Below the pieces are notes generated by a model, which had not been told where the DNA came from, made no database searches, and saw only the letters and a list, made by a program, of their open reading frames with translations. A program made the translations under genes and the position numbers. From Myxococcota bacterium (GTDB taxonomy: Bacteria; Myxococcota_A; UBA9160; UBA6930), in the NCBI GenBank assembly GCA_965223705.1, contig OZ245015.1:1318679-1382678 (forward strand): a stretch of DNA of 64,000 nt. The letters run 5' to 3'. Positions 16,113 to 18,832 of the stretch are shown here, piece after piece. Positions within the stretch are counted from its first letter, which is position 1, and each line of letters begins with the position of its first letter.

Positions 16113-16832
16113 CTAGCTGCGGGTTCGCTCGAGGGCCGCTTTGAGGTCTTCCCAGACCAGGCGGCGATTTTCCTCGGTGTACTGACGCAAGATGAAGGCG
16201 GGGTGGAGCGTCGGCATCACCGGAATGTCCGCATAGGTGTGCCAGGTCCCGCGTACTTTCGTGATCGCGATATCTCGTCCAAGCAGCAGGCTCGAGGCCG
16301 GCTTCCCCAGCGTGACGATTACCTTGGGCGCAACCGCCTCGATCTGTCCGTCGAGAAATCCGCGACAGGTGCTGACTTCGTCCGCGAGGGGCGTGCGGTT
16401 CTTCGGCGGCCGACACTTGACGATGTTGCAGATGTAGACGTCGCCGCGGGAAATCCCGAGGCCCTTCTCGATCATTCGCGTCAGGAGCTCGCCCGCCCGC
16501 CCCACGAACGGCACGCCGCGCAGGTCTTCCTGTTCGCCCGGGCCTTCGCCGACAAACATGAGATCCGCGTTCGGGTTCCCGTCTCCAAAGACGATTTGCG
16601 TGCGGGCTTCGTGCAGCCTGCATCGCGTGCAGTCCCCGATTTCGGCACGAACGTCATCGAGCGACCGTTCCGTCGCGCGTTTCAGAGCGAGGGATGGCTG
16701 GTCAGACGCTTCGGGAGTCGGGGGAGGCGTCGGCGCTCGGCGGATGGTTCCTTCGAAGCCTTCCTCGACGAGCTCGCCGACGAAGGCGCGCGCCGCGTCG
16801 AGGAGATCGCGTTGTTCGGCCGAGCGGTTCAG
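16113..16832 (-). CDS. Uracil-DNA glycosylase family 4 (4Fe-4S); probable CTG start
   Basis: CTRCRL upstream of [20 protein letters not shown]. Frame open to CTG 16832 with GGAG 7 nt upstream. Confidence 0.85.
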
Positions 16833-18832
16833 GGACGTTCTCCGTCGAGCTGGCGGAAAGCGTGCTCGATGGTTTGGTCGACGGAAGCCGGCGGATCGAG
16901 CCGCGCACTTCCGACCGTACCGTGCCGCTGATGCTCGATCTTTTCTTCGACCTCGAACTCGAAGCCGGGATCATTGGCGTCGTCGTGGCACCCGCCGCAG
17001 ATCTGGAGAATCACACACGAGTCGCACTTGTCGGTGAGCGCGAGAATGGTGCCCTTCTTCGCCGCTTCCGGAGGGACGTGGTCACCACCGGGGCCGTGAC
17101 ACGATTCGCACCCGACGCGCGCGAGGTCCGGATGATCGGCCATGCTGCCGTTCGCAGGGAAGCCTCCGGCCTTGTCGTACGCTGTCGTGTGACAGCTGAC
17201 ACACGCGGCGTTGCCTTCTTCGCCTCGGCTCACAAGCGTTTCAAAAGCCTTCGCGTGTGGATGCTTCGCCCACGTGTCGAACTCCGCTGCGTGGCACGAC
17301 TGGCACGCGTCTGAGCCCACGTAGTCCGCCTTGGTCGGAAGCAGGGCCGCTCGCGTTTCGCGGCGCTTCGCGATGAGCGCTTTCTTTTCTTCCACGGAAA
17401 GTGCCGCGAACGCCGCGTTTGCCGCGTGGGATACTTTCGGCACAAAGCTCGTGTAGTCGAAACCGAGGGAGTGCTTCGTGTCGTGGCACGTTACGCACAC
17501 CGGCGCGTAGTTGTTGTTCTCGACGAAGTCCTTCGAAAGATGCGGGCCGCCCCGCCCGTGGCAGCTTTCGCAACCGACGTCTTCGAGGCCCGGGTTCGGG
17601 CGATCGAGCGAGTACCCTCCCGTTTCTCCGTATCCCACCACGTGGCATCCCACGCACTCGGGGTCGGTCTCCGCGCCGTGCTTCACCAACGTGTCGTAGG
17701 CGGAAGCGTGGTTGGTGAGCAGCCACGTGTCGTGCTGCTGTTCGTGGCAGGTGACGCAAATCTCGTTGCCGCTGTAGCCCTTTCCGTTGAGGAGCATCGG
17801 GACGCGTCGGCCTGAGACCTGCGCGAGACGCATCTTCTGCAACGCCGGTTCGCGGTGATGGCGCCAACCTTCGACCCGTGAGTGGATGCGGCCCTCGGCG
17901 TCGATCAGAAACGACGTCGGCACCGAGGAGAGTCCGCCGAACGCCTCGCGGATCTTGCCGTCGGGATCTCCGTAGGGGGAGAAGAAACGGATTCCCTCGC
18001 TCGCGAGGGAGGCCTCCACCGCGCTCCGGTCCGATCGAAGCGACAGGCCGACGAACAGCGGGCGCCCGTCTTCGGGAAGGTTTTCGAACTCTTCCTGGTA
18101 GAAGCGCAAAGCCTCGTGGCAGTGCGGACACGTGTGGAGAAAAAACACGAGCAAGACCGGTCGGCCTTTCGCTTTGGCGAGCTCGAACGTCGTTTTGCCG
18201 TCGAGGGTCTTGGCCGTGAAGTCCGGGGCGGCCGGTTTCGCTTCGAGGCCCGCAGCCCCGAACGCTTCTTCTTGCGGAAGCCGGAGCCAGTCGCGCATGA
18301 CTCTCGCGATACCGGCCTTCGCCTTGTCCGCGGGCTGTCCGCCCGTCTGGATCGGCCCGCCGCGCTGCATGACGCCTTTCGCGTCCGCGAGGAAGAGGGC
18401 CGCGGGTTGTGTCGCACCCAGTTTCCTCGCGAGCGCGAGTTCGTTGTCCTCGAAAACGGGGAAATCAAAAGCGAGCTCTTCCGCGAGCATGTAGGCAGCG
18501 CCGCCGCCGCGGGCGACGCCGACGATCTCGAAATTGTGCTCGGATCGGTACGGTGCGATCTCGCCGATCGCCGCCGCCGCCGCTTTTCCATCGGAGTGCT
18601 TCGCGTCGAACACGAGAATCAGGAGGCGCTTGCCCATCAGACTCGAAATGGAGAGCGACTGCCCGTCCAGGGTCGCGCCGGTGTGAGCGGGGAGCAGTCG
18701 GTTTGATTTCGCGCCGCCCGCCGCGAAAGCGAGGAGTGCCAAGCCCTGTAGCAAGACCACGGCGAGCGCCAGTCGAAATCGCCCGCGAGAGTTGGCAGCG
18801 CCACCCCGTCGGCCGTGTCGGGACTCAGTCAA
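16829..18832 (-). CDS. Exported fusion: two redoxin (thioredoxin-fold) domains plus two cytochrome c554-like tetraheme modules
   Basis: Signal peptide; [11 protein letters not shown]...HTCPHC...SVPTSFLID; 8 further CxxCH motifs in two YxGxxxCxxCH modules. Confidence 0.85.

Follow-up and report, generated by a model that had tools for sequence, protein, structure and literature searches.

In pathways of the DsbA-DsbB/VKOR and Erv1(ALR)-cytochrome c type, a CPHC-type oxidant is recycled via a second cysteine pair, placed beside a one-electron-capable cofactor, to the respiratory chain. To our knowledge, all links between disulfides and electron chains use a two-to-one-electron converter, i.e., a quinone (DsbB/VKOR), flavin adenine dinucleotide (FAD; Erv/ALR), or an Fe-S cluster (FTR, Hdr), and the only His/Cys haems that we know of act on inorganic sulfur (TsdA, SoxAX, and MccSep). 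In this work, we analyzed a 64,000-nt stretch of contig OZ245015.1 of the Myxococcota bacterium GCA_965223705.1 (this whole stretch is hereafter called the window, and its positions are used as coordinates), focusing on a minus-strand gene whose product joins two redoxin folds, the second with a CPHC motif, to eight haem-binding CxxCH motifs and a further CxxC placed directly before the last of them. This redoxin-octahaem protein probably lets extracytoplasmic thiol/disulfide chemistry trade electrons directly with cytochromes; judging from its sequence, the chances are slightly better than even that it is an exported, haem-wired thiol:disulfide oxidoreductase with an intramolecular relay, in which thiol oxidation would be slightly favored. 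Each of the domains comes from a known superfamily, and it is the combination of an extracytoplasmic thioredoxin with haem-based S-S chemistry that is new.

With the TlpA-like thioredoxins (ResA (1st9/1su9), CcmG/DsbE, B. japonicum TlpA, StoA, Etrx, and M. tuberculosis DsbE/DsbF), the redoxin part has in common the fold, the export, a CxxC at the N-terminus of helix 1, and a cis-Pro loop. It differs from them in the DsbA-type CPHC (its best profile match is 3c71, an engineered CPHC variant of ResA), in Ala241 at the position of ResA Glu80 (ResA KKE is aligned to H-E-A), in the Cys-less copy of the fold that precedes it, and in the fusion to eight haems. Each haem module carries four CxxCH motifs at the spacing of N. 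europaea cytochrome c554 (1bvb, 1ft5, 1ft6) and matches 1bvb and 1ft6 in fold; in contrast to c554, the module occurs as a tandem pair, fused to redoxins and with an additional CxxC inserted ahead of the last haem, and is unconnected with hydroxylamine oxidation. The haem module is most closely related to the UshA-like (seleno)proteins of NF041198 (E 2e-57 across the last 140 profile positions), also uncharacterized, whose N-terminal part is not a redoxin but an UshA-like metallophosphatase fold and which have four haems and no CxxC by the last one. They pair the tetrahaem module with PCGC or, in selenoprotein forms, with PCGU (PMC13188914).

For the junction between the CDSC motif and haem 8, the model is provided by c-type (multi)haem proteins that perform S-S chemistry by means of a haem Cys and a second chalcogen. 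TsdA and SoxAX act through a haem-ligating cysteine (PMC4423706), and MccSep, a polysulfide reductase of Geobacter, cleaves S-S bonds with a His/Cys haem and a nearby selenocysteine (PMC13510729). These enzymes lack a thioredoxin fold and show no detectable sequence relationship to the window protein beyond CxxCH, and a Cys ligand in the latter is hypothetical. What the protein has in common with DsbA-DsbB/VKOR is the logic: it has neither the DsbA helical domain nor a membrane protein, and, compared with both DsbB/VKOR and Erv1(ALR), the cofactor would be a c-type haem instead of a quinone or FAD, with everything placed in one soluble or tethered chain.

The redoxin folds and the CPHC site

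A preliminary description of the locus, made from the sequence alone, had distinguished a first redoxin domain without CxxC and a second one with CPHC and an SVPT loop. Both domains were recovered in our analysis. The first fold contains no Cys at all; NPxV-type residues occupy the place of the CxxC, Pro is kept at the cis-Pro position, and the profile matches (positions 52–180) include DsbF (3ios), MPT53 (1lu4), TlpA (4txo), and Bcp (3drn). By analogy, it is probably a redox-inactive docking or structural domain. The second fold matched the Pfam families AhpC-TSA (1.7e-17, 64 bits, cut-off 26) and Redoxin (2.3e-16, 60 bits, cut-off 26.6), and Foldseek aligned it with ResA, TlpA, and DsbE (prob 1.0, TM ~0.8), with a root-mean-square deviation to ResA of 1.6–1.7 Å. 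In the AlphaFold model of the whole protein (predicted local distance difference test (pLDDT) 78.9, predicted TM-score (pTM) 0.67), the two redoxin folds are predicted with very high confidence, and the profile of 53 homologues matched the structures of ResA, TlpA, CcmG, and DsbF for each of them. Despite the CPHC, there was no match to Pfam DSBA, and the domain overlays ResA-type folds of ~140 aa.

Residues C235, H237, C238, H239, and P305 are invariant in the 53 aligned homologues. A poorly conserved CPHC, which the preliminary description had regarded as fatal to its interpretation, was not what we found, as this motif occurs in 119 of 120 close homologues and a CxxC is kept across the family. 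In all 120 of these homologues the CxxC is followed by His, and the resulting CPHCH may also be read as a ninth haem-binding motif, a point absent from the preliminary description. A ninth covalent haem or a metal (Cu/Zn) site on the thioredoxin fold of this clade, within H/Y-T-C-P-H-C-H, would agree with this invariant His, with the clustering of three His and two Cys within seven residues, and with the fact that the Ccm system, indicated in the genome by CcmE (E 1e-21), recognizes CxxCH in Sec-exported unfolded chains. However, among 40 divergent redoxin-octahaem representatives the dipeptide varies (CPHC in 20, CSHC in 6, CGHC in 3, and other in 11) and His follows the CxxC in just five, the remaining ones having Q, R, K, I, A, and others at this position; neither the cis-Pro loop nor the ResA-like geometry is lost, and a c-type haem carried by a thioredoxin fold is not known to us. 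A ninth site is thus very improbable, and because members as divergent as ~30% identity retain the CxxC but not the following His, the conservation pattern identifies CPHC as a dithiol site. His at the second variable position of the CxxC (CPHC, CSHC, CGHC), present in 29 of the 40 divergent members, is of the DsbA/PDI type.

Even less credible is the assignment of the protein as a cytochrome c maturation helper (the ResA/CcmG role) fused to its own substrate, or as a peroxiredoxin. ResA and DsbE are indeed the top family-level matches, many homologues bear the JGI label 'peroxiredoxin', and AhpC-TSA is matched in Pfam, but the scores for the NCBIfam equivalogs are far under the cut-offs (ResA 44 vs. 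170 bits, DsbE 30.5 vs. 123, StoA 26 vs. 210), and the peroxidatic motif PxxxT/SxxC was not found in the protein: in the sequence FFLHTCPHC, Thr234 directly precedes Cys235 of a thioredoxin-type CxxC, and the Bcp-matching domain 1 is Cys-less. Neither role would account for the single-copy conservation together with eight haems. Self-maturation, suggested in the preliminary description, is likewise unlikely because the genome encodes its own DsbD with a neighboring TlpA-like redoxin, and the Ccm system.

The octahaem half and the second CxxC motif

The eight CxxCH motifs of the two tetrahaem modules read exactly as listed previously, and so does the extra CDSC before the last haem, located at residues 603–606. 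The Pfam Cytochrome_C554 profile matched the whole protein in two stretches (98.6 bits, cut-off 20.8), and the two tetrahaem modules are duplicates of each other (34% identity, E 7e-24 in pairwise alignment). With the profile of 53 homologues, the haem part matched c554 (1bvb) and OcwA (6i5b), and in a fold search of the PDB with a separate model of the cytochrome half, c554 was the sole match (E 2e-4, 28% identity). The c554 equivalog NF043010 was not reached (86.5 bits, cut-off 400). The same is true of NF041198 (194.8 bits, cut-off 275), of which only profile positions 381–519, i.e., the haem module, were matched; in module 2, the NCBIfam model UshA_like_PCGU is matched by its C-terminal haem part only, and PCGC is absent from the window protein.

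All 16 haem cysteines and eight proximal His residues are invariant in the 53 aligned homologues. The spare conserved His residues are 375, 431, and 469 (and 454) in module 1 and 526, 585, and 637 in module 2, which gives three universally conserved spare His per four haems in each module, as in c554. The latter has one five-coordinate haem, stacked on haem IV. A His four residues after the haem-4 motif (H454) is present in 29 of 45 sequences, and its equivalent after haem 8 in only 4 of 45. A missing distal His was considered as a hint of a Cys-ligated haem in module 2, but H454 of module 1 is itself conserved in only those 29 sequences.

The CDSC motif falls in a 12-residue insertion of module 2, for which there is no counterpart in module 1 of the same chain. 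Its register relative to the haem-8 motif, C-x2-C-[VA]-[IL]-x2-[IL]-C-x2-C-H, is kept down to ~30% identity, where the motif reads CP[FEV]C; more generally, distant members have the form C[DPEG..]xC. The second CxxC is present in 120 of 120 close homologues and in 36 of 40 divergent redoxin-octahaem representatives. It is absent from all 57 redoxin-less, tetrahaem-only loci fetched from genomes, and from 18 of 22 tetrahaem representatives, where at least some of the four exceptions resemble short pieces from the C-terminus of octahaem proteins. By this distribution, the second CxxC is family-specific and travels with the redoxin-octahaem architecture. A strict co-occurrence of both CxxC motifs was considered and rejected: it is only near-strict, with eight exceptions among divergent representatives.

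The tetrahaem lineage itself recurs beside cysteine or selenocysteine redox centers, because it is also fused to UshA-like PCGC/PCGU domains. Proteins of the NF041198 type (~400–550 aa), with an UshA-like (E)PCGC(F) domain and one c554-like tetrahaem module, are encoded in 57 genomes (L023–L080, e.g., L023, L028, L038, and L066) of Planctomycetota, Verrucomicrobiota, Armatimonadota, Myxococcus, and others.

Distribution of the architecture

Homologues were searched for among 5.8 billion proteins, which gave 1,317 matches among the scored candidates; after clustering at 50% identity, 287 clusters matched at E <= 1e-30. The best 120 homologues are full-length, with 40–56% (mostly 49–55%) identity, the window's own protein (100%) apart, and nearly all of them come from metagenome-assembled genomes of Myxococcota or 'Deltaproteobacteria'. 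Their database names do not go beyond 'redoxin domain-containing protein', 'multiheme c-type cytochrome', or 'peroxiredoxin'. The lineage is uncultured and widespread, and was found in soil, marine, and low-oxygen-zone samples.

One copy of the gene was found in 67 of 201 genomes sampled across the phylum, and a few of these 67 matches cover the haem part only. The full two-redoxin form is present, as a single copy, in 37 of 37 sampled relatives at the family, order, or class level; other Myxococcota classes have a shorter, one-redoxin form with 31–38% identity. The survey of domain architecture and distribution proposed in the preliminary description reveals a conserved arrangement that is real and under strong selection. 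The gene is thus no rare fusion: a class-level lineage inherits it vertically, in single copy, as one of its core genes, and its occurrence in each of the sampled class-level relatives suggests a core envelope function. No characterized protein with this architecture was found in Pfam, NCBIfam, the PDB, or a literature search, and the authors of the preliminary description had known of none either.

Some variants were also recorded. In one genus of the same family (g3; L085, L086, and L087), the haem-6 motif and its surroundings are lost, and the proteins are heptahaem; they read …AHPHA…(E/A)xPE[IV]GCE[ST]CHG and keep CPHCH as well as the second CxxC, as CGSC. Another set (P0150, P0143, P0182, P0188, P0189, and P0195) includes a 1,082-aa form whose N-terminal part holds ~400 aa of TPR repeats, an 834-aa form in which two AhpC/TSA domains can be recognized, and forms of ~480 aa in which the N-terminal 200 aa lack both a Pfam match and a CxxC, but CPTC beside haem 8 is kept.

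Redox gene content of the genome

The genome (4.56 Mb, 95% complete) was screened for other redox systems. DsbB was not found in it. A VKOR-like domain (28.7 bits) was detected only once, in a fusion whose C-terminal domain resembles DsbA and carries a CPHC of its own (…DPLCPHCASL…), i.e., the same dipeptide as the redoxin-octahaem protein. A full DsbD, adjoined by the TlpA-like redoxin mentioned above, and two further membrane proteins of the DsbD_TM/CcdA type are also encoded. The cytochromes include an ActA-like pentahaem protein of alternative complex III (ACIII) and dihaem cytochromes c, and there is one copy of a haem-copper oxidase. About four open reading frames (ORFs) have at least four CxxCH motifs, and among them the redoxin-octahaem protein has the most. 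The only other sizeable multihaem protein in the genome is a ~560-aa exported protein (G000:C1:619823-621844, plus strand), which combines five CxxCH motifs with a large non-haem region at the C-terminus.

Replacement of a missing Dsb pathway by the redoxin-octahaem protein was rejected as an explanation, as the VKOR-DsbA fusion with CPHC, the full DsbD, and the two DsbD_TM/CcdA-type proteins exist despite the lack of DsbB. Both canonical Dsb routes being encoded, the protein is therefore an additional system in an aerobic, cytochrome-poor organism.

A putative relay and its direction

We observed directly how the domains are arranged, which residues are conserved, and that both CxxC motifs occur together, and we infer the electron-transfer steps and their direction as follows. 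A client dithiol or disulfide, either a protein or a small sulfur compound, would exchange with the solvent-exposed C235-P-H-C238, the Cys-less fold 1 serving for docking or as a structural element in the manner of PDI b domains. The CPHC would in turn exchange with C603-x-x-C606, directly before the haem-8 motif, and the adjacent haem would make or break the C603/C606 disulfide in two one-electron steps, with one of these cysteines possibly being a haem ligand (cf. TsdA, SoxAX, and MccSep). Electrons would then run from haem 8 through 7 to 1 to the periplasmic cytochrome pool (ACIII, cytochrome c, and cytochrome oxidase), or from this pool in the opposite order. The preliminary description had proposed that one chain could link a haem wire to disulfide chemistry; the architecture, the CxxC conserved family-wide, and the second CxxC restricted to this architecture all fit such a relay, and the electron transfer itself is the conjectural part of the proposal.

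CPHC, CGHC, and CSHC dipeptides are typical of oxidases and isomerases. The view that redoxins are normally fed by DsbD/CcdA, also expressed in the preliminary description, holds for reductive TlpA-like proteins; the present family has dipeptides of the oxidase and isomerase kind. The potentials measured so far for CPHC proteins, -32 to -221 mV, are higher than those of typical reductive thioredoxins, and in one thioredoxin the potential rose by 66 mV upon substitution with CPHC (PMC4395160). Because of the DsbA/PDI-type dipeptides, these potentials, the replacement of ResA Glu80 by Ala, and the availability of an aerobic chain, we lean slightly towards thiol oxidation with the cytochrome chain as the electron sink.

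The same relay may also be run reductively, from quinol-linked cytochromes through the eight haems, CDSC, and CPHC to disulfides in the periplasm or outside the cell, polysulfide, sulfenic acids, or oxidized envelope proteins, which would make the protein a DsbD-independent reductase. The closest relatives in sequence and fold (ResA, CcmG, TlpA, StoA, and Etrx) are all reductive, S-S cleavage by MccSep is haem-driven (PMC13510729), the reduction of organic disulfides by Shewanella needs Mtr cytochromes (PMC10986466), and a long haem wire on a tethered lipoprotein would suit electron delivery away from the membrane. On the other hand, the dipeptides and the Ala at the Glu80 position speak against a reductase, the complete DsbD and the two DsbD_TM/CcdA-type proteins are available for reductive needs, and multihaem cytochromes are otherwise scarce in this organism, which has an aerobic chain. 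We therefore regard a reductive relay as possible but rather doubtful.

Several points weigh against an oxidative relay as such. It leaves the need for eight haems unaccounted for, and neither canonical pathway is missing, given the VKOR-DsbA fusion and the full DsbD. The CXXC dipeptide alone does not set the redox potential (PMC4395160). No conserved neighbor pointing to a substrate or partner was found in 23 related loci and in the distant members. In the AlphaFold2 model, which includes no haems, confidence is low around residues 582–649, and the key region has pLDDT < 50. Finally, four representatives have a redoxin and eight haems but no second CxxC, and four others keep CPTC beside haem 8 with an unrecognized, Cys-less N-terminal region of 200 aa.

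These eight representatives, together with the canonical Dsb partners in the genome and the fact that a domain fusion can reflect mere co-localization, speak for a protein without intramolecular coupling, in which the redoxin would be served by DsbD- or VKOR-type partners, the octahaem part would be an independent carrier or anchor, and CDSC would form a structural disulfide or a local fold element. Nonetheless, the fusion has persisted, in single copy, over a spread at the phylum level, the second CxxC is closely confined to the redoxin-octahaem architecture, and CxxC disulfides are rarely purely structural, which makes the uncoupled arrangement unlikely and leaves the intramolecular relay as the explanation that we prefer.

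Gene features and genomic neighborhood

The features of the gene and its surroundings are collected in Table 1; back-translation confirmed the motif coordinates. The identical (100%) database protein, P0002, is called from a GTG located 24 codons further downstream than the TTG start given here; the TTG start retains the basic n-region of the signal peptide, which the database entry loses. The signal peptide reported in the preliminary description is also apparent from our direct reading, which indicates a Sec-type N-terminus without a lipobox Cys. In the family, a lipobox Cys followed by an Ala/Pro-rich tether is present in at least 68 of 121 sequences (these 121 include the window protein and its shorter database call, both without lipobox), so most relatives are predicted lipoproteins and the window copy has a plain signal peptide. 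A scan for sigma-70 promoters gave no candidate.

Table 1. Coordinates of the redoxin-octahaem gene, its encoded domains and motifs, and other features discussed in the text (window positions unless a genome locus is given).
Feature	Position	Strand	Basis or remarks
Redoxin-octahaem coding sequence	16829..18832	-	ORF list and translation; TTG start at 18832, stop at 16829, 667 aa
Shine-Dalgarno-like GGGAGGG	18841..18847	-	Sequence read; 8 nt upstream of TTG start
Signal peptide region, residues 1-38	18719..18832	-	Direct reading; basic n-region RGRFR, then hydrophobic stretch
Redoxin fold 1, residues ~44-186, Cys-less	18275..18703	-	PDB profile matches; pLDDT > 90
Redoxin fold 2, residues ~198-340, ResA/TlpA/CcmG-like	17813..18241	-	Pfam, NCBIfam, Foldseek
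C235-P-H-C238-H239 active-site motif, DsbA-type CPHC then His	18116..18130	-	Invariant in 53 aligned sequences
S303-V-P305-T cis-Pro loop of fold 2	17915..17926	-	P305 invariant, V304 >= 90% conserved; aligns with ResA 'PLPTTFLI' loop
c554-like tetrahaem module 1, residues 352-470	17423..17779	-	Pfam Cytochrome_C554 4e-28; PDB c554 1bvb by profile and fold
Haems 1-4 of module 1: CVTCH 359, CVGCH 393, CESCH 421, CVTCH 446	within 17423..17779	-	Sequence read
Helical linker between haem modules, residues 471-502	17327..17422	-	AlphaFold2 helices H469-476, H480-491
c554-like tetrahaem module 2, residues 503-640	16913..17326	-	Internal duplicate of module 1
Haems 5-8 of module 2: CQSCH 510, CVSCH 544, CESCH 575, CGGCH 612	within 16913..17326	-	Sequence read
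Module 2 stretch with module-2-specific insertion, residues 595-611, ending at haem-8 motif	17000..17050	-	Module alignment; 12-residue gap in module 1
C603-D-S-C606, second CxxC, 5 residues before haem-8 CxxCH	17015..17026	-	Invariant in 53 aligned homologues; proposed haem-proximal redox-active disulfide
Hsp70-like and J-domain gene pair	18941-21567	-	Directly upstream of redoxin-cytochrome gene
Family-4 uracil-DNA glycosylase, then short ORF, downstream	15817-16110 and 16113-16559	-	Same strand as cytochrome gene
VKOR-DsbA fusion	G000:C1:4268642-4269950 (L081 1500-2807)	+	Genome search

Upstream of the redoxin-octahaem gene, on the same strand, lie an Hsp70-like gene and a small J-domain gene, and downstream, after a gap of 270 nt, a gene for a family-4 uracil-DNA glycosylase (UDG). 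The Hsp70-like protein (705 aa) has a long, acidic, repeat-rich C-terminal tail (…DVQPQGIEVERDVRDVQPQGIEIELDVQQQGVEED…), and the stop of its gene overlaps the start of the 170-aa J-domain/TPR-like gene. The short ORF past the UDG gene encodes two hydrophobic segments and has no Pfam match. Further away, at 11224-13640 on the minus strand, there are ORFs of 291 and 514 aa without a Pfam match at E <= 0.01, the 514-aa frame being partly conserved in 13 related loci.

The order of the Hsp70-like and J-domain genes is kept in 14–15 of 23 related loci, and the neighborhood including these two and the UDG gene is syntenic in 14–17 of 23. A functional meaning of this synteny was considered and rejected; it is taken as phylogenetic, i.e., inherited, because the order is lost in distant members (Binatia, UBA10199, and one-redoxin forms), whose genes adjoin unrelated ones such as RsgA, GNAT, MepA, SerRS, flagellar, helicase, and hydrolase genes.

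Conclusions

We tentatively propose, as a possibility short of an even chance, that redoxin-octahaem proteins are previously unrecognized thiol:cytochrome c oxidoreductases free of flavin, quinone, and Fe-S clusters, in which a haem-side CxxC, possibly a ligating one, would convert two-electron into one-electron chemistry. If true, protein or organic thiols would come within the reach of haem-based S-S chemistry, and a compact module would be available by which thiol/disulfide reactions could be coupled to electrodes or cytochromes. A whole class of Myxococcota would then have, alongside DsbB/VKOR-quinone and Erv-FAD, a third way of connecting the disulfide chemistry of the envelope with the respiratory chain, and a core envelope function that has yet to be named would be defined for a lineage that is widespread and uncultured.

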